Shown in pieces: positions 1,668-42,785 of a DNA stretch of 64,000 nt; position 1 is the stretch's first letter; each line of letters starts with the position of its first letter. The position numbers and the translations under genes are program-made. The stretch spans positions 8,290 through 72,289 of the forward strand of contig JBGSUE010000040.1 in assembly GCA_041753515.1 (NCBI GenBank). Reading direction: 5' to 3'. The DNA comes from Patescibacteria group bacterium. GTDB lineage: Bacteria; Patescibacteriota; Microgenomatia; UBA10105; UBA927. Below the pieces are notes generated by a model, which was not told the DNA's origin, did not search any database, and was given only the letters and a program-made list of their open reading frames with translations.

Positions 1668-3774
1668 TGTTATAAGGCATGACAAGAATATACATTTCTT
1701 GCCACTTTCGCCCTCTTTATCCCGAATAATAGAAATTATATACAGTTTTCACACGCATATACACGTATAATTTCACAGGATACGTATGTTCGTAAGTCAA
1801 TCAGTCACTCAAAGGTGAAAATATATATATGTCTTATATCAATAGCCTAAATCAATCTAGCACTCATTGGTTATAAGTGCCATTTAACATAATTCGGAGC
1901 TAAATTATCTTGCGGGAATAATTAAATTGAATAGAAATATATTCGTGAATATTTACACCTCGATATGATAAAATAATTATTATAAGTTTTATAATAAACA
2001 TATTATCGGTTATAAGCTAGTTATAGATCGTTATAACGGTATTATTATTTCCCGGATGGATAATTTATTGATCAAGTAGTACTGAGTAATATACTGCATA
2101 TATTATTAAATATTTATTTAAATATGATGTCCTATGGTATAGAAATCTGCGGCTAAATATGTACATGCGTTAAATCGTGAATAGTAATTTTTACACTCAG
2201 GCATATTCCTCATCCTATTCATACAGATATTGATTCATCAAATAGATATGCATCGCTTCAAATTTATTTGCATAGATATACTTTATCAAAGCTTATTCCG
2301 GCATCCTAAAATATTTTCTTACCATTAGTATTTCAGTATTATGATCATGTAGACAAAAAAATCTGCCATTTCCTCGTTTTCAATTTATTCCAACGTACCT
2401 GCTCATACCTTCCACTATTTTATTTTTGTACAATAGGCTCTTGAATATGTATTCACCAGAAGTCGAAGAAACTAGCGAAATGTTTTTGCACTAAATGGAA
2501 TACGGGAATACCGTAAGTATCAATGAACCAGTTCATGATGGTTACTTACCAGATTCACACTTTATGTTAAAAAATAATTACATCATTGATTAATGACAAA
2601 CTACAAATGCTCACTGCTCTCATGTCTGAATGTACCCGACTTTTAAACACGTACAATAAAAACATCACTTTTTTCTTTTGTCGTAAAATATTCAACTCTC
2701 CTCCACTTTACATTTTTAATAGTTATTGATACGTCGTAAAAATTTTTATGAAATTTACATTATACATATAAAAATTTAAAAATTCTCACTATTGCATAAT
2801 AAACCTATAATATATTCTTCTTTTTATAATTATCTTTCCGTCACTAGTCGTACAAAATATTTTGGTATACTCTGCTCTAAAGATACAAATCTAATCTCAT
2901 ATACGTCGTAAAATTTTATATCAAATAAACATACCGGTAATACATATTTATTAAATCGTCGTAAAATATATACATTATCTGTCGAACGGCCTCACGAACA
3001 GGATTACAAATTTTCAGGAGAAATATTTATTAATTAGCCAAACTCAACCGAATATAATAAAACGGGATACAGACATCCACCAATTATTTCATTATATTGA
3101 TTCTATATACACATCTCTATTATTACTTCAGCATTTTACACTTCAATATCAATATAGTACTAAATGATATTTAAAACATCTATATATTATTTAATATTCT
3201 TTTTTATATATTAATACGACTTAAATGGATTGTTCTTGCGTGAGCCCCATAACCGAATCTGCATATCTTTAAATCTTTCATTAGAATACAGAGAAATTCC
3301 GCATACCTTTCCATTTTCAGTCGGACTCCGGGTGTTTGAAAAACCTTTCACTGTCATATTCAACGCAATCCCCATTCTTTATCCGACGTGCGCGATTCAC
3401 GGCTACTATTGTGCTCTGTTCAGTTCACTATCTATGCCGGTTGAGGAATTTTTCATCCGTTATATGGCATTTCAAAGGCTTACGGAAATGAGAGTTTTTT
3501 TATTAACTTTAGACTGTCATGTCAGTATGAAATATGAAATACTTTGAGGCTAAATTAGCAATCTCACTCTCTCATCTGCTAAATATCAATAATATCATTA
3601 GAACAGGAAAATCGTGGTTTTTGAAGCTAAAATATACTATATACTCCTCACTTTCCCCGAGTCATATTCATTTTTCAAACAATAACTATCTTATAGGACT
3701 CACCAAACTGATGTCAATTTTTCACTTTTTCCGGATTTCTATATCTAAAGATATCAATGAAGGACTTAACTACA
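1668..3774. other. 2.1-kb AT-rich region with no credible ORFs, between the leuS start and the 3' end of the pilin cluster
   Basis: Base composition far more AT-rich than flanking CDS. Stops in all six frames. The only track ORFs (3230-3547, 3534-3887) are low-complexity. Confidence 0.6.
2678..2970 (+). repeat. five same-orientation direct repeats of core [T]ACGTCGTAAAAT (iteron-like), spaced about 52-116 bp
   Basis: Copies at about 2678-2690 (ttgtcgtaaaata), 2730-2742 (tacgtcgtaaaaa), 2846-2860 (tagtcgtacaaaata), 2902-2917 (tacgtcgtaaaatttt) and 2955-2970 (atcgtcgtaaaatata). Confidence 0.6.
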
Positions 3775-12611: not shown

Positions 12612-13064
12612 GTGCTATACTTTTCCAGCTTGTCCAAAGGTCGAACCGTCGACGCCCTTTTACATCCCCCAGAATGGAGAAAAAATGAAAACATCGAGTT
12701 GTTCGTACTGAGAATTGCAGAATGGGCACTCATCGCCCTGTCCGTAACCGGCACACTGCTGGGCGCAGCAACACTGTTCTCGCCCCAATCGGCGCCATGG
12801 GGTCCGATCACTGTCATCACCGGACTCATTCTGAATACGGTATTGGTGATTCATGCATGGCGCGCAAAGAGAGAACCTGTCCGGCAGTTTCATCCGTACC
12901 TATATCTGGTAGCCGTGATCCTCTTTTGCGTATTCGTCGGCTATTGGATTCTCACAGGGCTGATGGGTGAAGCGCTCTTCTCATACATGACGTTAGTATT
13001 GGCGATGGCGCTTCATGTCATCCGGCTGTCCACACCCCGGCTCAGAGCCCACTGGGCAAATTGA
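12612..13064 (+). CDS. small hydrophobic membrane protein, hypothetical
   Basis: 150 aa with 3-4 TM segments and coding-like composition. Overlaps only the doubtful N-extension of the GT-C ORF. Confidence 0.4.
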   Translation: MLYFSSLSKGRTVDALLHPPEWRKNENIELFVLRIAEWALIALSVTGTLLGAATLFSPQSAPWGPITVITGLILNTVLVIHAWRAKREPVRQFHPYLYLVAVILFCVFVGYWILTGLMGEALFSYMTLVLAMALHVIRLSTPRLRAHWAN

Positions 13065-13254
13065 TTAGAAATTGGTGTGATCTGCCCATGCGATGGTTTT
13101 TTCAACAGAAAAAATTGGGGAATAAAATCGTGTGGGTATTTTTCAGGTTTTTTAATAAATGCCTGAAATATTCCCACACGGATTCATCAAAATAAAATCC
13201 CTTCCGTTCAGGCAATAAGCTTGAGAAGAAGGGGTTTTATTTTTATTTCTCTCC

Positions 13255-13279
13255 TCCTCATACATCGATGTATTGGGAG
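13255..13279. promoter_or_regulatory. imperfect copy of the 24-bp palindrome TCCCAATACATCGATGTATTGGGA, upstream of the kinase-like gene pair
   Basis: tcctcatacatcgatgtattgggag. The partner copy lies at about 14941-14965. Confidence 0.5.
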
Positions 13280-13348
13280 TAAATTCAACTGAATGAAGAT
13301 TTAAAGTTTGTCTCCATACTCACAATTACATATAATAGTTTTCAACAT

Positions 13349-14242
13349 ATGCCTGAAATATCACCGCAAACACAACAACTTCTGAAGGAATACACCGGCG
13401 GCATACCCAGGGATTCAAAAATTATCTCCGATAACAGCGCCACAGGTATCATCTCGGTATTGGAATACACATCCGGTAAACTTGCCGTAAAAAAAGCAAA
13501 AGAGCCTGATTTGCCAACCCGGGATGAAAATAGAATACTTGTAAGACGGGAAGCAAAAAATCTCGACGCAATATCCACAACCAAATATGCAAAAAATGTT
13601 CCATACGTTGCCGATGTGAAAGACGATGAAAAAGGCGTGAGTATTGTTATGGAGTATCTGGATGGTTATAAGAATCTGGATGAACAGATCAACTCCTATC
13701 CCCCCCTTGAACAACTGCAGATACTTTCACAAGCCAAACAGATCCTGGATGGTATTCAGGCTGATGCCCACATCACTCACCTTGATTTTAGCTTCGGCAA
13801 TATTATGGTGAAGGGCCTCGGAAAAAACCTGAAATTAAAGATAATTGATTGGGCCCAGGCAGTACCCAATGGTAATAATAAGCAACTCATTCAATCAGAA
13901 CAGTATTTCCTGTCATCAATGAACAAAATTATTCGAGGTGAACCCATACTCAGCGAAAAAATCCGCACCCTCACCACAGACCTGGAGACTATGACCCCTG
14001 AATCAGCAAAAAAGGCTGTCAACAGCTTCCTTGATCAAGCCAGACAACGGTACGCAACATATGCAACTCATGAACAATCCCGAAAGTTCAATCTGGACGT
14101 GATTGACAGCATCAGTATTTACAACAAATTGACACCAAAAGACACAGTGCAGAAGATTCTGGAATCCATTGAGCAAAAAACTGGAGAATATACAACAATT
14201 CCTGTATTTTACGAAAAAGAGCCTATTCCTGGCTGGACATGA
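13349..14242 (+). CDS. atypical protein-kinase-fold protein, Kdo/WaaP (lipopolysaccharide kinase)-like
   Basis: LAVKKAK (beta3 Lys), RREAKNL (alphaC Glu), catalytic ITHLDFSFGNIMV, and IIDWAQA in place of DFG. Confidence 0.5.
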   Translation: MPEISPQTQQLLKEYTGGIPRDSKIISDNSATGIISVLEYTSGKLAVKKAKEPDLPTRDENRILVRREAKNLDAISTTKYAKNVPYVADVKDDEKGVSIVMEYLDGYKNLDEQINSYPPLEQLQILSQAKQILDGIQADAHITHLDFSFGNIMVKGLGKNLKLKIIDWAQAVPNGNNKQLIQSEQYFLSSMNKIIRGEPILSEKIRTLTTDLETMTPESAKKAVNSFLDQARQRYATYATHEQSRKFNLDVIDSISIYNKLTPKDTVQKILESIEQKTGEYTTIPVFYEKEPIPGWT

Positions 14243-14925
14243 TGAGTGCTTCTGATCGTTTAAAACTGCTGGACGATATGGCCGGTGCTATGCAGGATAT
14301 TCACGATAACGGATTCGGATTTGAAGATTTCGGCATGCACCGTTTTGTCATTGAAATACCAAAAAAAGAGCAGGGAACGGTACAGACACATCTTATCGAT
14401 TATTCCGGCGCTATCCATCATCCATCCGAAGAAATCCTTGCAGATTCCCAATCATACCTCCGCCACACAGCATTCCATATCCTGACTCGTTCGGCAAACC
14501 ACATTCCTCCGGAAACATTTCGGGAAGTGGCTTTGATATTCGATGAACAGATTCCGTACAGGGATGCACTGGCACGCATACGCAAAGCAATCCAAACTGA
14601 CCGTACTCATACATACTGGGAAAAAGACGATCCCGATCCCATACCGATATCCTTTCTAGACAAGGCATATAATCTGCAGGATTTACACAGAAATGGATTT
14701 ATCTATCCACACTACCTTCGCAAAGAGACTTTTGCAGGAGGTCCATACGCATATGACGATACACTCCCGTCGCCCAGCTTGGAATCAATTAAAGAAACGA
14801 ATCTTGAGGATTTAGGATATTTTACGATATCAGAAATCAAAAACAGCCCTGTTATTAACCCTAAACTCGCAGACTGGGCAGTACAGCACGTCTACGGTGA
14901 ATCACACACCTACTGGCCTGTTTAA
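14239..14925 (+). CDS. kinase-like protein, C-lobe only (Kdo/WaaP-like catalytic segment MHDNGFGFEDFGMHRFVI...LIDYSGA); possibly a degenerate paralog
   Basis: ATGA start/stop overlap with the upstream gene. Lacks the N-lobe. Confidence 0.4.
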   Translation: MMSASDRLKLLDDMAGAMQDIHDNGFGFEDFGMHRFVIEIPKKEQGTVQTHLIDYSGAIHHPSEEILADSQSYLRHTAFHILTRSANHIPPETFREVALIFDEQIPYRDALARIRKAIQTDRTHTYWEKDDPDPIPISFLDKAYNLQDLHRNGFIYPHYLRKETFAGGPYAYDDTLPSPSLESIKETNLEDLGYFTISEIKNSPVINPKLADWAVQHVYGESHTYWPV

Positions 14926-14940
14926 CACTCTTTCATCTAC

Positions 14941-14965
14941 TCCCAATACATCGATGTATAGGGAG
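14941..14965. promoter_or_regulatory. second copy of the 24-bp palindrome (tcccaatacatcgatgtataggga), downstream of the kinase-like pair
   Basis: Direct reading. With 13255-13279 it brackets the two-gene unit. Confidence 0.5.
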
Positions 14966-15001
14966 TTAATTATCCACTAATCTATAATCTGTACAGAATA
15001 C

Positions 15002-15030
15002 TTGACAAAATAATGTACGTTTTGTATACT
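15002..15030 (+). promoter_or_regulatory. sigma70-type promoter TTGACA-N17-TATACT, 8 nt upstream of the phd start (leaderless-type)
   Basis: TTGACA 15002-15007, spacer 17 nt, TATACT 15025-15030, ATG at 15039. The spacer holds gtacgttttgtatac, a possible operator. Confidence 0.6.
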
Positions 15031-15038
15031 CTATTCAT

Positions 15039-15311
15039 ATGCAGCTCCAACCATCCCAATTCATTCCGATAACCGAAGCAAGAACGAGAATTTCTGAACT
15101 TACAAAATCCGTTGAAGGAGACACGTATGTTGTACTGACAAAAGGTGGGAAACCCAAAGCTGCACTGGTTGATATTGCCTATTTACAACGTTTGCAGAAT
15201 GATCTCTCCAAACTCTATAAAAAAACTTATATCGACCCAGTACTTCTTCCGATTACCCGTCAATTTTCCGATAGTGAAATACAAGAGTGGGAAAAAGAGG
15301 ATCAGCTATAA
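15039..15311 (+). CDS. type II antitoxin, Phd/YefM family
   Basis: MQLQPSQFIPITEARTRISELTKSVEGDTYVVLTKGGKPKAALVDIAYLQRL is the Phd_YefM fold signature. Confidence 0.8.
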   Translation: MQLQPSQFIPITEARTRISELTKSVEGDTYVVLTKGGKPKAALVDIAYLQRLQNDLSKLYKKTYIDPVLLPITRQFSDSEIQEWEKEDQL

Positions 15312-15317
15312 AAATGT

Positions 15318-15785
15318 ATGAAACAGGCGTTTCTCGATTCAAGCGTCCTGTTTACAGCCGTCAACTCCCCAACCGGCGGATCAGCCAAACTGTTTACTCT
15401 CCCAATTCAGCTTGTCACATCAACGTTTGTGTTGACAGAAGTCGAACGAAATGTCCGGGAAAAACTGCTCTCTCATCATCTGGACCGGTATTTCATACTT
15501 GTTAAACAAATGAAGATCGTGGAGGGTAAATCGGATACTAAACTGATTGAAAAAGCCAAAAAAGTCATTGTCGAAAAAGACTCACTTGTTCTTGCAGATG
15601 CCAAACTGTCACATGCTGAGTATCTGATCACTCTGGATCTCAAGTACTTCTTCACTCCACAAGCCCAAAAATTTCTCAAACCCACCCTCATCCTCACCCC
15701 AAAATGCTCATTGAAAAAATTTCCTGACTGTTTTAACGACCGTTTCGGTTTCGGAGTCAGTCAGTTCAGGAAACAGCGGCAGTGA
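15318..15785 (+). CDS. vapC: PIN-domain toxin (VapC-like)
   Basis: Acidic residues at FLDSSVL, TEVE, ADAK and ITLD. Follows the antitoxin by 6 bp. Confidence 0.7.
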   Translation: MKQAFLDSSVLFTAVNSPTGGSAKLFTLPIQLVTSTFVLTEVERNVREKLLSHHLDRYFILVKQMKIVEGKSDTKLIEKAKKVIVEKDSLVLADAKLSHAEYLITLDLKYFFTPQAQKFLKPTLILTPKCSLKKFPDCFNDRFGFGVSQFRKQRQ

Positions 15786-16821: not shown

Positions 16822-16883
16822 TGTCATTCTGAACAAAGTGAAGAATCTATTCACTAGATCCTTCGCTCACGCTCAGGATGACA
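16822..16883. repeat. inverted-repeat element E2 (TGTCATTCTGAACAAAGTGAAGAATCT ... AGATCCTTCGCTCACGCTCAGGATGACA)
   Basis: 8 bp upstream of the aminotransferase start at 16814. Overlaps the 3' end of the GT2 pseudogene. Confidence 0.7.
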
Positions 16884-17586
16884 AACGGTACAGTATCATA
16901 TCAATAATCGTCGGAATGATGGTTCTAAGGCTTCCTCCCCCCGCCCCTTCCTCATCGGTCCGGGCTTTGTGGGCAATCGTTGTTTCCGCCACACGAAAAC
17001 CGGCACGGACCGCATCGATAATCATCTCCGCATCCACAAATGCGGAACGGGTTGAAAGATCAATCGAATCAATGACTTGTTTTTTTACGAGCCGGATGGA
17101 ATTGACGTCATGAATACTGATCCCGTAGAAGAATTTAAGAAGTGTATTGTAAATTTTCGACTGCCGCAAACGCGTTTCCGGATCCCTGCGGTTCACCCGC
17201 CAGCCGATAATCAAATCTGCATCACCTACAAGTTGTGCCAATGTTTGCAGTTCTTTGGGGTCCAGCTGTCCGTCACCGGGAACGGTAAACAGCCACTCAT
17301 ACCGTCAGGTTTTATAGAGTTCCTGTATGGTTCCCCCATACCCCTGATTCACCGTATGGGTTAAAACAGTAAGTTGTGGGTATTTCTTTAAAAGATTATT
17401 CAATACATCGCCCGTTCCGTCACGGCTTGCATCATTTATCACCATGATTTCGTATGTCCTGGTAATTTTTTTGGCAATAGTATCTGCTTTTAAAATTACT
17501 GATGCAACAGTCTCTTCATCATTGTATGCAGGTATGAGGATTGATACGGACGGAAAACGCATAGGATATTTTCCATATGATATCAT
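16873..17586 (-). pseudogene. DPM1-like GT2 with a single in-frame TGA at 17305-17307 (two track ORFs, 17305-17586 and 16873-17241, share one frame)
   Basis: Continuous translation is ...NQGYGGTIQELYKT[TGA]RYEWLFTVPGDGQLDPKELQTLAQLVGDADLIIGWR... The DxD-region alignment is uninterrupted, so one codon is replaced by a stop. Confidence 0.55.
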
Positions 17587-24650: not shown

Positions 24651-24659
24651 CTAAATCTC

Positions 24660-24707
24660 ATTATTAGTATATTTCTGATGCACGTGCATTCTAAATATAC
24701 TAATAAT
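24660..24707. terminator. perfect 15-bp inverted repeat (ATTATTAGTATATTT / AAATATACTAATAAT) with an 18-nt loop containing TGCACGTGCA; candidate bidirectional terminator or regulatory hairpin
   Basis: Direct reading. The AT-rich stem is atypical for an intrinsic terminator. Confidence 0.35.
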
Positions 24708-24745
24708 CATATGTACATCTATTTTATTGGATCATCTCAAATACT

Positions 24746-39802: not shown

Positions 39803-40730
39803 GTCTGTACCATTCAATTGTTTTCTTCAGACCTTCCTCGAGTAAAATTTTTGCCTTCCACCCGAGGACTTTTTCCGATTTTTCCGTACTCGCCTTCCAG
39901 TGATACGCATCCCATGCGCGCCCGGGATATGCATTTTTTACTATTTTTGATTGTGATCCAGCTTTACAAACTACTTTTTTTGCCAATTCATAGATCGTCG
40001 TTTCCTTCCCGGTGCCCAAATTAAACACTTCCCCATCCGCCCGTGATCCGGCTGATATGGTTTTCACTATTGCGCGGACAATATCATCCGTATGGATAAA
40101 ATCCCGTGCTTCGCGTCCAGTGGCAAGTTTAATGGGATTGTTTTGCAAGGCTGATTCTATAACACTTCGCACCAATCGTCCTTCTTCCTCAAACGGCCCG
40201 TAAATATTAAAAAACCTTAGAACAGTAATGGGTTTTTTGTGCCGCGTGGCATAATACTGGCACAAATGTGTTGCCGACGCTTTTGTAACCGCATAGAGGC
40301 TGTTTGGCATAATACGGTCATTCTCCATCATTGCCGTATCGCGGTATCCGTATTCGCTGGAACTTCCCGCAACAATAAATCGTTTATATGGAATATCCAC
40401 ACTCGCATCCAGAAGTCTCTTGAGTGTATTGATATTCACTTCAATCATTTTTGCCCACTCATCCTGTGATGGATATGCCCCGAATGCCGCAAGATGAATG
40501 ATTGCGTAGGGATGTGTATTTTGAAACAATTTTTCCAGTTGTTTTTCGTCTTTGAGAATACCTGTATAAAGTGTAATTTTTGACAGAAGATGACGAATTC
40601 TCCACACGTCTCCGCCGGACCGCACCGCAACATGAACATCCCACCCTCTTTGTACAAAATACTGAGTAACACTTGCTCCCACAAAACCTGCCCCGCCGGT
40701 AATAAAGACACTTTTTTTCATGTCACTCAA
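39780..40730 (-). CDS. NAD-dependent epimerase/dehydratase
   Basis: VFITGGAGFVGASV. YAVTK is YxxxK. Confidence 0.85.
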   Translation of the reverse strand: MSDMKKSVFITGGAGFVGASVTQYFVQRGWDVHVAVRSGGDVWRIRHLLSKITLYTGILKDEKQLEKLFQNTHPYAIIHLAAFGAYPSQDEWAKMIEVNINTLKRLLDASVDIPYKRFIVAGSSSEYGYRDTAMMENDRIMPNSLYAVTKASATHLCQYYATRHKKPITVLRFFNIYGPFEEEGRLVRSVIESALQNNPIKLATGREARDFIHTDDIVRAIVKTISAGSRADGEVFNLGTGKETTIYELAKKVVCKAGSQSKIVKNAYPGRAWDAYHWKASTEKSEKVLGWKAKILLEEGLKKTIEWYRQELRIMN

Positions 40731-41823
40731 TAGACTTCACACGGGACAGTGCATGCATGATCCTGTTTCTGGCATTCGGAAGATAGGTGTTGTGCTTGAG
40801 CATATACCGCTCACGGATGAGCGCTTTGACCAGTGAGATCCGCAGATAATAGAGCCAAAAACGGAGGTCAAAATCTTCCGGCAGAGTTCTGATGCTTTTA
40901 TATCCGGAAAGAAATACATCAAACCACACTTCATGTTCAAAACACCCGGATCCGTAGTATGCGATATCATATACCGGATCGCCTGCCAGGCAATCTTCCC
41001 AATCAATAATAGCTGCAACTTTTCCGCCATTCACAAATGTATTATGATTTGCCACGTCTCCATGTAAGATTGACGGCTCAAACGGGGCAATCCGTGAAAA
41101 TTTCGAAAGCTGTGTTGCTATCTCCGTTGCCTCCTTTTGGGTGATAACCCCTACCAGACTGCAGGATTCGATGTGCGAAACCATATTGAGAATAAGGTAC
41201 GACATCCATGTTTCATGAAGTCCGTGTGGTTTTCCGTCAATGATGCTTTGGATTGAAATAGGCCCGAAACGGGACGTCTTCATTTCATGAATACTGGCGA
41301 TAAACGAACCCAATTGACCAAAAAGTGAAACGGGGATATCCGTATGGAGACTTCGGTCAAACAGCGTTTCTCCGGGCAGATCTTCAACAATCTGATAGTC
41401 AAACGGCACTAACGACCGTGTTGTATCAATGTCAATGATGGTCACATGAGGAAGGGATTTTTTTTCAAGCTCCAGCATCATCCAATGCTCGGTATAAAAC
41501 GATAATTCCCGGTAAAAATCTCCGGCAGCATTAATCCGTATAACGCGGCTGCCTTTATCGGTTTTTACCCTATAAACATAATGGAGAGTTCTGCGTGCAA
41601 GTTCGTCAATTTTTTCAATGTTTTCATTATGGCGGTCGGAAAAAATTTTCCGGATATCCGGTGTGTGGACATCAAGATGGGTATTTAAGATATCCACGGG
41701 ATATACCCCGTCAACTTTCGTAAAAAAGAATGTTTTCTGATACGCGGTAAACCGGTCAACTTCGTTTTTATCGATTGCGGACGCAGATATGTCCATATCA
41801 TATGTTATCGTACCCCAAAACAC
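40723..41823 (-). CDS. APH/choline-kinase-family phosphotransferase (candidate sugar kinase)
   Basis: ILHGDVANHNTFV...IIDWEDCLAGDPVYDIA is the APH Brenner motif plus the DxE metal loop. Confidence 0.7.
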   Translation of the reverse strand: MFWGTITYDMDISASAIDKNEVDRFTAYQKTFFFTKVDGVYPVDILNTHLDVHTPDIRKIFSDRHNENIEKIDELARRTLHYVYRVKTDKGSRVIRINAAGDFYRELSFYTEHWMMLELEKKSLPHVTIIDIDTTRSLVPFDYQIVEDLPGETLFDRSLHTDIPVSLFGQLGSFIASIHEMKTSRFGPISIQSIIDGKPHGLHETWMSYLILNMVSHIESCSLVGVITQKEATEIATQLSKFSRIAPFEPSILHGDVANHNTFVNGGKVAAIIDWEDCLAGDPVYDIAYYGSGCFEHEVWFDVFLSGYKSIRTLPEDFDLRFWLYYLRISLVKALIRERYMLKHNTYLPNARNRIMHALSRVKSIE

Positions 41824-42745
41824 GGTTAATTACCATGGACAGTGATTTTATTCGATTGTATTCACTTCTTGTCAGTTCTTTCACCGTTTGTATGTTTGCT
41901 TTTTCTGTCGGAATTTCAATTGTGCCCCACGGATACTGATGCTCCAGTCTTTTTCCGTTCCATGACGGATATGTCATGGTAGGGCTGTACGGAATACCCA
42001 ATTTTTTACACAGTTTTTTGAAAAATGCCTCTTTATCCTCCACCATATCCTCATACCGCACCACGAGCATATTCCTGGAATATGTATCGGCAAAAGAAAG
42101 TGCTGCCAGCTGAACCATACTCCATGTGCGTACATATCTGTCCAGTGAATACGGCACGGGGCGACGCTTAGTTTCTGCATACGCCGCATACGGATTGCGC
42201 ACAATATGCAGCATAATTGCATCGGGAAAATCGGAAACCATTTTATCCGTATCAACAGCTATGATCGGACTGTATCCGACAAATATCTTTTCTTTACCGG
42301 TTTTTTTGTATGTACTCCACGCTGCAAACGTTGAGCGGTAGTATGCTTCCACAAGATTTTTTCGGGTTCGGTCTTTCCCTTGCATCCAGGCGACAAATGC
42401 CTTTTTCCGGTCGGTATTCGTGCACCCCAGTTCAGACACATCCCGGAATTTAGAAACATGGCGCGTATTGACCATCACTTTAAATTCTTCGTCTATGATT
42501 GCATCATAATCACTGTCCACGGTGCCTTCTATCCCGAATTCCGGCCAGCGGTATTTTTGCGGAAAACAGCTCGTCATCCAATCGGCAATTTTAAATGTTC
42601 CGGGTTGGGATTCGTACGGATACACAAAAAGTTCCGGATGGGTGTCCAAATGCCGCTGAAGTGTGTTTCCACCGTTTTCGTACATGGCAGAAATCATGAC
42701 AAAACTGAATTTTTTCGGACCGAAATCGTACGTCTTTGTGCTCAT
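41798..42745 (-). CDS. sulfotransferase-family protein (candidate glycan sulfotransferase)
   Basis: N-terminal KFSFVMISAMYENGGNTLQRHLDTHPELF is PSB-loop-like. HIVRNPYAAYAETKRR resembles the RNP 3'-phosphate-binding motif. Confidence 0.45.
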   Translation of the reverse strand: MSTKTYDFGPKKFSFVMISAMYENGGNTLQRHLDTHPELFVYPYESQPGTFKIADWMTSCFPQKYRWPEFGIEGTVDSDYDAIIDEEFKVMVNTRHVSKFRDVSELGCTNTDRKKAFVAWMQGKDRTRKNLVEAYYRSTFAAWSTYKKTGKEKIFVGYSPIIAVDTDKMVSDFPDAIMLHIVRNPYAAYAETKRRPVPYSLDRYVRTWSMVQLAALSFADTYSRNMLVVRYEDMVEDKEAFFKKLCKKLGIPYSPTMTYPSWNGKRLEHQYPWGTIEIPTEKANIQTVKELTRSEYNRIKSLSMVINRVLGYDNI

Positions 42746-42785
42746 TGCCCATACTCCTTTCAATTTTTATATTTCGATAATAGTA

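Follow-up and report, generated by a model that had tools for sequence, protein, structure and literature searches.

Bacterial modules that couple a kinase to a second kinase-derived protein have been described in a few cases. In HipBST, HipT matches the C-terminal and HipS the N-terminal part of HipA (PMC9325769, PMC6581861), and KKP (PfkA/PfkB/PfpC) is a two-kinase module of toxin-antitoxin and defence type (PMC11341870). We examined a gene pair in a 64-kb window (the whole stretch of DNA that was analysed), consisting of P1 (13349..14242, plus strand, 297 aa) and P2 (14239..14925, plus strand, 228 aa). The two ORFs form a unit with an ATGA overlap, as an initial sequence-only reading had described, and the peptides quoted there were recovered, HITHLDFSFGNIMV and IIDWAQA in P1 and MHDNGFGFEDFGMHRFVI...LIDYSGA in P2. 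P1-P2 shares with HipBST the concept of a kinase gene beside a small kinase-part protein that controls the kinase, as well as tight gene linkage, a patchy distribution and a toxin-antitoxin-rich setting. It differs from HipBST in lacking any sequence relation to it and a HipB-like HTH gene, and in the nature of the fragment, since P2 is C-lobe-like and encoded downstream rather than being an N-terminal subdomain; neither HipA_N nor HipA_C was found by Pfam in P1 or P2 at E ≤ 1.

Compared with PD-T4-6, Stk2 and KKP, P1 showed a PADLOC PD-T4-6 match (1.7e-11), but this proved generic, as the ordinary Hanks kinases P0007 and P0008 reached 1e-70 to 1e-86 in the control, and PD-T4-6 membership was rejected. 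Moreover, P1-P2 lacks a phosphatase gene and a prophage context, and P2 is not a full kinase. The pair also resembles Xer/dif modules, IMEX and the pdif modules of Acinetobacter in being a small module between 28-bp sites, each with 11-nt inverted arms around a 6-nt centre, with toxin-antitoxin genes adjacent (PMC6449649, PMC13141974), the right-hand palindrome of the locus (14939-14966) conforming to such a site as ACTCCCAATAC-ATCGAT-GTATAGGGAGT in geometry only. P1-P2 differs from these modules in that the centre of its palindrome is symmetric, the locus is chromosomal and away from a skew switch, no Xer gene was found in the window, and there is no sign of movement.

P1 and its only relative

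Homologues of P1 and P2 were searched for with a word index, with phmmer against 1.84e9 representatives and with a profile, and only one protein, P0003, was retrieved, such that the family comprises P1 and this single other member (25 to 26% identity) among 5.8 billion protein clusters. Candidates from a viral and metagenome scan were discarded as relatives, being generic Hanks kinases only (HRDxKxxN), a giant-virus MAG kinase included. The catalytic set of P1 consists of LAVK48, E68, H144-L-D146-FSFG-N151 and IID167W, and P0003 carries the same residues as P1 at K48, E68, H144, D146, N151 and D167, in a register confirmed by the PknB alignment.

P1 matched the Pfam RIO1 model at 3.4e-9 (37 bits against a cutoff of 22), over model positions 45-158 of 187 only, while its best PDB match was PknB (4eqm, 3.6e-7) and a PHROG serine-threonine kinase was matched at 9.8e-7. 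With the profile of the P1 and P0003 family, 36 PDB chains were matched at E ≤ 0.01, all of them canonical Ser/Thr kinases. Nothing was obtained for P1 with PF00069 at E ≤ 1, and the PF07714 match was sub-threshold. P0003 passed the PF00069 cutoff, scoring higher with Pkinase (47.3 bits) than with PF06293 (29.9 bits, cutoff 21.3), and gave no match to RIO1 at E ≤ 10; its catalytic loop reads HLDFGTSN. The AF2 model of P1, built from a 7-sequence kinase alignment, was of low confidence (pLDDT 45.7), with an order of secondary-structure elements that fits a kinase, and a Foldseek search with this low-confidence model yielded 862 matches at E ≤ 1e-3, kinases only. The intact catalytic residues, the RIO1 and PknB matches and the family profile all agree with the kinase-like character noticed at the outset, and they indicated that P1 is a highly divergent protein-kinase-like enzyme, probably catalytically competent as judged by its residues.

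With Hanks-type Ser/Thr kinases (PknB/Stk1, PF00069), P1 shares the β3 Lys, the αC Glu, the HxD...N loop and the Asp at the DFG position. It departs from them in its catalytic loop, HLDFSFGN without the Lys of HRDxKxxN, in a short post-DFG segment without an APE motif (IIDW, then about 15 residues, then SEQY), and in the absence of sensor or PASTA domains. With RIO/Bud32 kinases (PF01163; KEOPS), it has in common the RIO1 gathering score that it passed and its small size, and its motifs HxD-F/L-S-x-x-N-I-M/L-V and IIDxxQAV resemble the catalytic and metal-binding loops of RIO kinases. At the presumed position of the RIO STGKEA-type nucleotide loop, P1 reads SATGIISV and P0003 reads GGTADIFK. 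Against a RIO/Bud32 assignment, no RIO or Bud32 structure appeared among the PDB matches of the family profile, and no Kae1 or ribosome-biogenesis genes occur in the P1 context.

Kdo/WaaP kinases (PF06293) are like P1 in their protein-kinase-like fold, in lacking the Hanks Lys from the catalytic loop and in a glycan-gene neighbourhood. An HxDxxxxN loop without the Hanks Lys is common among small-molecule kinases. However, PF06293 gave no match to P1 at E ≤ 1 and APH reached only 0.19, the family profile is nearer to Ser/Thr kinases, and no Kdo, heptose or waa pathway families were detected by Pfam among about 50 neighbour proteins. On these grounds the Kdo/WaaP identity that the sequence-only reading had put first was not supported, and of the HMM families that it had named, P1 passed the cutoff of RIO1, over part of the model, but not that of PF06293 or of the Bud32 NCBIfam model (26.5 against a cutoff of 246). 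As to the remainder of the protein, the C-terminus of P1 (180-297) resembled neither the C-terminus of P0003 (p = 0.84) nor P2 (p = 0.45). A weak HopA1 Pfam match was below its cutoff.

P2 and a model for the gene pair

P2 has no homologue in the 1.84e9 representatives, as determined by exhaustive phmmer of the P1+P2 concatenation, and it gave no matches to Pfam, NCBIfam, PADLOC, other HMM libraries or the PDB, nor any tblastn hit to plasmids and phages; BLASTP of P2 against P1 was not significant. Residues 5-73 weakly resemble the kinase αE, catalytic loop and DFG region (F-E-D30...R35, LID54YS). When P2 was aligned to the kinase core by hhalign, the expected register was obtained at an E value of 0.025 and a probability of 2%, and a kinase-core HMM that included the family scored P2 at 7.1 bits (1 of 3000 shuffles as good), compared with 3.1 bits for a Hanks-only HMM (20 of 3000). 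Neither the tail of the P0003 locus nor the C-terminal half of P2 scored with the kinase-core HMM. P2 also contains an internal repeat, DMAGAMQDIHDNGF and DKAYNLQDLHRNGF (p = 0.008). Its description as an N-lobe-less kinase-like protein is an interpretation that was weakly supported by this core likeness (p about 0.001-0.007) and found no backing from BLASTP, Pfam or the PDB. The fold prediction that had been suggested gave a kinase-like model for P1, at the low pLDDT noted above, and an unusable one for P2 (single sequence, pLDDT 40.1, no Foldseek match).

At the locus of the relative (L001), a single TAA ends the P0003 gene and another ORF continues without a change of frame, the gene boundary being displaced by about 17 codons relative to that between P1 and P2. 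An alignment pairs the last 18 residues of P0003 with the N-terminal 18 of P2, and residues 1-40 of P2 can be aligned end to end with the tail at L001 (p = 0.009). Judged by these alignments, the two-ORF pairing is conserved between the window and L001.

We propose, with a probability of roughly 40%, that P1-P2 is an accessory operon encoding a kinase and a non-catalytic partner, bounded by hairpin or operator elements and functioning as a conflict-type module. The ATGA overlap would allow P2 to be made in a fixed ratio to P1. P2 would be the non-catalytic partner, probably descended from the C-terminal portion of a formerly longer member of the kinase family, with a faint αE/catalytic-loop/DFG-like imprint apparently retained at its N-terminus; as it has no N-lobe, it should therefore be unable to bind ATP. 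We infer that P1 and P2 are in contact, and P2 may bind P1 so as to restrain it or direct it to its substrate, a role modelled on the pseudokinase or kinase-fragment partners of other systems. The scarcity of relatives, the shifted gene boundary and the adjoining Phd/PIN pair make a fast-evolving module of conflict type (toxin-antitoxin-like or defence-like) appear preferable to a housekeeping signalling pair. A sugar or cell-surface substrate is conceivable, since the surrounding 60 kb or so is devoted to glycan biosynthesis. On our best reading, the Kdo/WaaP sugar kinase label does not apply to P1-P2, and the locus cannot be shown to be a mobile cassette.

Should P1 be active and under the control of P2, the pair would represent a previously unseen protein-kinase-like lineage with two members in about 15 billion predicted proteins, and such control would add to the few bacterial split-kinase and kinase/pseudokinase modules, exemplified by HipBST and KKP. 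More modestly, P1-P2 is on present evidence an annotation-level curiosity with no bearing on a long-standing question.

Palindromes, hairpins and promoters around the pair

An ideal 24-mer, TCCCAATACATCGATGTATTGGGA, is matched at 13255-13278, with 2 mismatches, and at 14941-14964, with 1, and has no further match in the 64 kb; 0.00 matches are expected from shuffles. The 14-nt core, ATACATCGATGTAT, is identical between the two copies, whose similarity covers 36 nt as a direct repeat (13250-13285 and 14936-14971, 86% identity). The left palindrome (cCTCCTCATACATCGATGTATTGGGAGT, 13253..13280, unstranded) has three mismatches to ACTCCCAATACAT in its outer (left) arm and a perfect inner arm, and the right palindrome (ACTCCCAATACATCGATGTATAGGGAGT, 14939..14966, unstranded, 28 nt), located 14 nt after the P2 stop, has a perfect inner (left) arm and one mismatch in the outer arm. 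Near-identical palindromes do bracket the gene pair, one on each side, as had been noticed, and the proviso that they might be a common genome-wide terminator found no support within the 64-kb window, where they occur only as these two copies.

As RNA, the left palindrome folds at -10.2 kcal/mol, its pairing being kept through a U-G wobble, and the right one forms a hairpin of -13.3 kcal/mol that none of 200 shuffles equalled. Canonical intrinsic termination was rejected for both, as their tails, UAAAUUCA and UUAAUUAU, contain no U-run and the terminator scan reported none there. A near-identical palindrome precedes miaA as a single copy in another MAG (locus L017), and the element is therefore not specific to P1-P2; what is conserved across the two genomes is the sequence itself, beyond its pairing potential, C-G having changed symmetrically to T-A. 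The GC skew keeps its sign at the palindromes in both the window, where it is negative throughout, and L017, so terminus dif sites were excluded. We consider the palindromes best read as hairpin or operator elements at transcript boundaries, a function that we infer.

Upstream of the left palindrome lie two further hairpins, both of which form in the MFE structure predicted for 13065-13400 (-95.7 kcal/mol, z = -5.75). Hairpin 1 (13122..13187, plus strand; core arms 13131-13149 and 13161-13179) is the inverted repeat I2, with 31-nt arms that are 77% complementary, and its right arm is an upstream copy of the P1 start. This duplicate of the P1 translation start (TTTTTAATAAATGCCTGAAATATTCCCACA, 13149..13178, plus strand), which had been noticed from the outset, was confirmed at 24/30 identity to 13339-13368 with a spacing of 190 nt, including an exact 13-nt core, ATGCCTGAAATAT, at 13159 and 13349. 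It opens a mini-ORF of 19 codons (13159-13218; MPEIFPHGFIKIKSLPFRQ followed by a stop). The local alignment was significant against shuffles of the intergenic region (p = 0.002), the duplicate being only 23-30 nt long, and chaining more blocks gained little (p = 0.014). A minus-strand RNA from the upstream copy would be complementary to the P1 start over 13 contiguous nt; a promoter scan found no minus-strand promoter for such an RNA, stronger duplexes are predicted in many other parts of the 64 kb, and the antisense reading was set aside. Hairpin 2 (13186..13253, unstranded), a bidirectional terminator-like element with an A-tract, a CCCTTC/GAAGGG stem and the T-run TTTTATTTTTATTT, is the inverted repeat I3 (28-nt arms, 79% complementary); a simple terminator scan overlooked it because its loop exceeds 8 nt.

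The left palindrome sits between hairpin 2 and a sigma-70-like promoter of P1 (13308..13336, plus strand; TTGTCT-17-TATAAT, 10/12, a consensus match only), which lies 12 nt before the ATG; no Shine-Dalgarno sequence was found at the P1 start. Downstream of P2 is a type II toxin-antitoxin pair (15039..15785, plus strand), composed of a Phd/YefM antitoxin (15039-15311; PF02604 4.3e-9, TIGR01552 2.3e-8) and a PIN-like toxin (15318-15785) with weak matches only (PIN_3 0.045, TIGR00305 1.7e-4). The phd promoter (15002..15030, plus strand; TTGACA-17-TATACT, 11/12) is the best in 20 kb and lies 8 nt before a leaderless ATG, the right palindrome being about 36 nt upstream of its -35 hexamer. In Rfam, no match reached the gathering threshold, the intergenic regions giving chance-level matches only, and no tRNA genes were found. 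Stop codon usage (TGA 23, TAA 23, TAG 5) and long ORFs showed that the standard code applies, and an alternative genetic code was dismissed.

Alternative roles and origins of the gene pair

The surroundings of P1-P2, about 60 kb, form a sugar-coat island of glycan biosynthesis genes, and the Pfam scan of the roughly 50 neighbours identified GT2, DegT, acetyltransferase, epimerase, PMT_2-like and methyltransferase proteins; a nearby GT2 gene (16873-17586) carries an in-frame stop. This embedding would suit a Kdo/WaaP-like glycan or cell-surface kinase, with P1 phosphorylating a sugar or lipid-linked glycan of the island and P2 as an accessory, and so would the P1 loop without the Hanks Lys and the PF06293 score of P0003, which is over the cutoff. 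We regard this role as unlikely: besides the blank PF06293 search of P1 and the poor APH value, Pkinase outscores PF06293 even for P0003, the family profile matched protein Ser/Thr kinases only in the PDB, and an APH-family kinase is already encoded in the island. In addition, P1-P2 is delimited by a promoter of its own and by hairpins and clusters with the toxin-antitoxin pair, not with any glycan transcription unit, and a family of two in 5.8e9 clusters contrasts with the many homologues that glycan-modifying enzymes normally have. An equally improbable account is that P1 and P2 are the halves of a former gene of about 525 aa or more, split by a frameshift at this locus and, in the relative, by a nonsense codon; the pair may then have lost its function, and the 23-30 nt duplicate upstream would be debris from rearrangement, which we likewise think unlikely. 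A 1-nt indel at 14239 would indeed fuse P1 to P2, the L001 ORFs share one frame and are parted by a single TAA at a break point about 17 codons away, a fragment of the P1 start lies upstream, and the nearby GT2 gene has its in-frame stop. However, both ORFs are long and intact, every catalytic residue has been kept across 25% identity, and ATGA with an ATG start is a standard arrangement of coupled genes with no error-prone homopolymer at the junction. Two independent breaks within about 50 nt, both with a usable start codon, point to a tolerated domain boundary rather than to decay.

The sequence-only reading had left open whether the interval is an inserted cassette or a unit under an operator. 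As a mobile mini-cassette, a circular P1-P2 carrying a perfect 28-bp site (ACTCCCAATAC-ATCGAT-GTATTGGGAGT) would have integrated at a similar but imperfect chromosomal site, and the 11+6+11 nt site, as in Xer/dif, would have left hybrid attL and attR sites behind, both steps being quite unlikely in our estimation. The attL/attR-like mismatch pattern spoke for it: the 13-nt arms that face the cassette (13268-13280, 14939-14951) form perfect inverted repeats, all four mismatches fall in the outer arms (three left, one right), the 14-nt core is the same in both copies, and the 36-nt direct repeat encloses exactly P1 and P2. A perfect, unoccupied-looking palindrome in another MAG and the adjoining toxin-antitoxin module, as in the dif modules of Acinetobacter (PMC6449649, PMC13141974), fit as well. 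So do contigs assembled from raw sequencing runs, which break within the interval; the Logan contigs of SRR28170473/4 are 100% identical window pieces that end at 13331 and 13204 and resume at 14567, a pattern compatible with the presence or the absence of a cassette-free variant. The recombinase, the empty site and the compositional anomaly, on the other hand, were missing. Pfam revealed no recombinase or transposase among about 50 window proteins, neither an empty site nor a second cassette was found, and the genome-contig scan with the neighbouring membrane glycosyltransferase yielded no relative for a synteny or empty-site comparison. The GC and GC3 of the cassette lie within about 1 SD of the window genes: GC is 0.419 for P1 and 0.444 for P2, and the window averages 0.447 ± 0.023. 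Composition gave no distinctive sign of recent horizontal transfer. The constant sign of the GC skew at either site and the symmetric central ATCGAT, which gives no directionality, also count against mobility, and mismatches confined to the outer arms would arise by chance about 1 time in 8 (a rough estimate). Were the palindromes a recombination site, they would indicate Xer-like cassette mobility in an uncultivated lineage. The fuller proposal, in which the mini-cassette occupies a conserved dif-like 28-bp site (with the unoccupied copy before miaA) and carries a split-kinase toxin-antitoxin-like or defence module as cargo, is very improbable; if true, Xer-type or IMEX-like cassettes would gain a novel class of cargo and a novel host lineage. 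Alternatively, the palindromes could be operators bound by a dimer, for example the adjacent Phd-PIN complex or a LacI-type repressor (central CG), with looping that represses P1-P2, which we consider rather doubtful. The palindromes stand outside the promoters at distances to the -35 hexamers that are unequal by 8 nt, phd is the only regulator gene that was found in the window, the L017 palindrome has no toxin-antitoxin or kinase gene nearby, and the cluster of TGTAYA motifs is not significant once corrected for all windows. In favour of operators, the palindrome sequence is conserved in two genomes with its symmetric base-pair change, each palindrome lies 40-50 nt upstream of a -35 hexamer, and TGTAYA motifs occur at 14955, 14990 (TGTACA) and 15023 (TGTATA) around the phd promoter, TGTACA being the core of the YefM-YoeB operator (PMC1802561).

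Kinase features of P1

The sequence-only reading had taken P1 (13349 to 14242, plus strand; an ORF of 297 aa) for a kinase, and this was borne out by database searches, in which P1 matched the Pfam RIO1 family (E = 3.4e-9; 37 bits, the cutoff being 22), Staphylococcus aureus PknB in the PDB (4eqm; 3.6e-7), and a PHROG serine-threonine kinase family (9.8e-7). The catalytic set was found to be complete (LAVK48, E68, H144-L-D146-FSFG-N151, and IID167W), and P0003, the sole relative of P1, shares every one of them at an identity of 25%. These data indicated that P1, judging from its sequence, belongs to the protein-kinase-like superfamily.

The more specific Kdo/WaaP identity was not supported: PF06293 gave no match to P1 at E ≤ 1, and a profile of P1 and P0003 retrieved 36 PDB chains at E ≤ 0.01, all of them canonical Ser/Thr kinases (MSK1, MLCK4, RSK2, CDPK1, and PknB), with no RIO, Bud32, WaaP, or APH chain among them. 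P0003 itself passed Pkinase at 47.3 bits, Kdo at 29.9 bits, and PK_Tyr_Ser-Thr, and did not pass RIO1. NCBIfam scores were far under every cutoff, and from these profiles P1 cannot be placed in any specific kinase family. Compared with Hanks kinases, P1 lacks the Lys of the catalytic loop (HLDFSFGN in P1) and has a short segment past the DFG-equivalent. A PADLOC match of P1 to PD-T4-6 (1.7e-11) was rejected as generic, the same models giving scores of 1e-70 to 1e-86 to ordinary Hanks kinases. An AF2 model of P1, computed from a 7-sequence alignment, was of low confidence (pLDDT 45.7); at that confidence, its secondary-structure elements come in an order that fits a kinase, and a Foldseek search returned 862 kinase chains at E ≤ 1e-3, both being consistent with a kinase fold and not independent proof of it.

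P2 and the gene boundary

P2 (14239 to 14925, plus strand; an ORF of 228 aa) overlaps P1 in ATGA, in agreement with the earlier view that the two form one unit. It had no match in Pfam, NCBIfam, PADLOC, PHROGs, or the PDB, and its single-sequence AF2 model (pLDDT 40.1) was unusable and gave no Foldseek match. P2 had been read as a kinase without an N lobe. hhalign placed its residues 3 to 38 onto residues 121 to 154 of P1 (alphaE and the catalytic loop) with an E value of 0.025 and a probability of just 2%, and a kinase-core HMM (alphaD to alphaF, built from 11 kinases) aligned residues 5 to 73 in that register too (7.1 bits), a score equalled by 1 in 3,000 composition-preserving shuffles; when P1 and P0003 were left out of the HMM, P2 scored 3.1 bits and 20 of 3,000 shuffles did as well. 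In the kinase register two Asp are kept (D30 and D54), the catalytic His is replaced by Phe and the metal-binding Asn by Arg, and P2 is without the Lys/Glu/Gly-loop region. The C-terminal half of P2 and the tail of L001, the contig encoding P0003, gave no score with this HMM. There is also an internal repeat within P2 (DMAGAMQDIHDNGF / DKAYNLQDLHRNGF; p = 0.008). The N-lobe-less kinase is thus a marginal proposition, having these weak matches in its favor and none in the libraries or the PDB. P2 is best regarded as an ORFan that bears a faint imprint of the kinase core, and would at most be a non-catalytic partner.

Relatives of the pair were sought by word-index search, by exhaustive phmmer of P1 and P2 against 1.84 billion representatives, and by profile search against 5.8 billion clusters. 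These yielded one relative of P1 overall, P0003 (336 aa; E = 4e-9), encoded on L001, a 1364-nt JGI metagenome contig (JGI 3300014208 contig Ga0172379_10209505), and zero relatives of P2. In viral and metagenome contigs, scanning turned up ordinary HRDxKxxN kinases only, and P2 had no tblastn match in plasmids or phages.

On L001, the P0003 gene ends in ...NERLETIGELAKAL followed by a single in-frame TAA (1149 to 1151), and a second ORF continues in the same frame and runs off the contig. Three causes of this TAA are conceivable: a gene split at another point from that in the window, read-through, or a nonsense mutation. Global alignment, unaided, sets the C-terminal 18 residues of P0003 against the N-terminal 18 of P2 (MLNTNERLETIGELAKAL / MMSASDRLKLLDDMAGAM). 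Local alignment of P2 residues 1 to 100 with the L001 tail ran end to end from residue 1 (score 40, p = 0.009), and BLASTP of P2 against this tail was not significant. These alignments provide modest evidence that the two-ORF layout is ancestral to both pairs, and that the break, a frame change in the window and a single in-frame stop in L001, may sit at a domain boundary where it is tolerated, its position differing by about 17 codons between the two genomes.

Palindromes and predicted transcript layout

All the sequence features described earlier were present (the ORFs with their ATGA overlap, two palindromes, and an upstream copy of the P1 start), and their interpretation was partly right. 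The palindromes are ACTCCNAATACATCGATGTATTNGGAGT-like sites with a geometry of 11+6+11 nt, the left at 13253 to 13280 and the right starting 14 nt past the P2 stop. The idealised 24-mer TCCCAATACATCGATGTATTGGGA matched at 13255 to 13278 (2 mismatches) and 14941 to 14964 (1 mismatch), with no third match in 64 kb (shuffle expectation, 0.00); the palindromes do bracket the pair. Both copies share an identical 14-nt core, and their similarity reaches a 36-nt direct repeat of 86% identity.

A scan of 185,579 species genomes with CCNNATACATCGATGTATNNGG gave three matches, one of which was a perfect 28-bp palindrome (ACTCCTAATACATCGATGTATTAGGAGT) near-identical to those of the window, with eight further positions in common. 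It lies at 3173 to 3200 of L017 (CAZQTD010000012.1, a MAG contig labeled uncultured Gammaproteobacteria), between a MiaB-like radical-SAM gene and miaA, and therefore the element exists outside the P1-P2 pair, in a housekeeping intergenic region. The L017 palindrome places GGAG 7 nt before the miaA ATG, so that folding of the hairpin (−18.4 kcal/mol) would hide the ribosome-binding site. Chromosomal dif sites were argued against by a GC skew whose sign is unchanged at the palindromes in both the window and L017. As RNA, the window copies fold at −10.2 and −13.3 kcal/mol, and neither is followed by a U-run. Pairing in the left copy is kept via a U-G wobble, workable on plus-strand RNA only, and in L017 that pair is changed symmetrically from C-G to U-A; both are compatible with an RNA hairpin or a dimeric DNA-binding protein. 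We tentatively read the palindromes as hairpins or operators placed at transcript boundaries. A 64-bp imperfect palindrome of unrelated sequence (34-nt arms, 82% complementary) lies at 24652 to 24715, between an EamA transporter gene and the next ORF.

Upstream of P1, a membrane-protein gene stops at 13064 and is followed by a long hairpin (13122 to 13187), the right arm of which is the duplicate of the P1 start, and by a second hairpin (13186 to 13253) with an A-tract before it and a T-run after it, which looks like a bidirectional terminator. The duplicate, 190 nt upstream, comprises 13 exact nt within 24/30 identity (p = 0.002 against the shuffled intergenic region); it is short, and chaining its extension adds little. 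A P1 promoter (TTGTCT-17-TATAAT, within 13308 to 13351) ends 12 nt before the ATG, and a phd promoter (TTGACA-17-TATACT, within 15002 to 15041), the top sigma-70 match in 20 kb, begins about 36 nt past the right palindrome and ends 8 nt before the phd ATG. Neither ATG has a Shine-Dalgarno sequence, so the mRNAs would be leaderless or nearly so; a Shine-Dalgarno-like motif (upstream 4-mer) precedes only 8 of 51 window genes.

Surroundings and proposed function

Nearly all classifiable genes of the window serve glycan or cell-surface biosynthesis, including GT2 enzymes, two DegT aminotransferases, a hexapeptide acyltransferase, several epimerases/dehydratases, PMT_2- and YfhO-like membrane proteins, methyltransferases, a sulfotransferase, an APH-family kinase, and pilin-like proteins; no recombinase, transposase, or regulator family was found among them. 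Directly 3′ of P2 are genes for a Phd/YefM antitoxin and a PIN-like toxin. The genetic code is standard, and P1 and P2 are compositionally unremarkable (GC 0.419 and 0.444 versus 0.447 ± 0.023 for window genes).

We tentatively propose, with a probability of roughly 0.4, that P1-P2 is an autonomous accessory operon in which P1 would be an active protein-kinase-like enzyme and P2, derived from the same ancestral protein, a non-catalytic product co-translated in stoichiometric ratio that may restrain or target P1. The pair may be a fast-evolving conflict-type module, a view favored by its almost complete lack of relatives, by its drifting gene boundary, and by the toxin-antitoxin genes beside it. 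The split HipT/HipS kinase system (PMC9325769, PMC6581861) and the KKP kinase module (PMC11341870) are conceptual analogues.

A glycan kinase, which the surroundings might bring to mind, is an unlikely identity for P1, and it is just as improbable that the pair is a decaying split gene. A site-specific mobile cassette is a slightly smaller chance. The arms proximal to the pair are perfect over 13 nt (13268 to 13280 and 14939 to 14951), and the mismatches (three and one) all lie in the outer arms, the pattern expected of attL/attR once a perfect site on an element has recombined with an imperfect one on the chromosome; by chance, this would arise about 1 time in 8 on a rough estimate, and no recombinase or transposase is found among the neighbors. 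No empty site was recovered, and a search with the neighboring glycosyltransferase found no related genome. Assemblies of the source runs SRR28170473/4 (Logan contigs L013 to L015) are 100% identical in the flanking genes, break off at 13331 and 13204, and start again at 14567, so that of the local genes only P1 and P2 are missing from them; coverage, strain variation, or hairpins could account for the gap, and the breaks are uninformative on a cassette-free variant.

Least probable, by a little, are operators for Phd-PIN or another dimer, an explanation that concerns the palindromes only and is compatible with the accessory operon. TGTAYA motifs form a cluster about the phd promoter that reaches the right palindrome, and TGTACA is the YefM-YoeB operator core (PMC1802561); we regard this cluster as a lead only toward a possible Phd operator.

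The PIN-like toxin ORF (plus strand) overlaps the 3′ end of a convergent DegT aminotransferase gene (minus strand) by 78 nt (15708 to 15785), and its C-terminal ~25 residues are read antisense to DegT. The first 4,000 nt of the window are AT-rich (GC 0.354 versus 0.44 window-wide) and gave no tRNA or Rfam match, with no ORF of at least 120 aa at 1683 to 3774. A GT2 glycosyltransferase frame at 16873 to 17586 (minus strand) is otherwise continuous and has one in-frame stop after ...ELYKT, to be put down to a nonsense mutation, to a pseudogene, or to an error of assembly. The second kinase-fold gene of the glycan island, an APH-family phosphotransferase (1.6e-22) at 40723 to 42763 (minus strand), adjoins the sulfotransferase gene; as a candidate sugar-modifying enzyme it is more conventional than P1.
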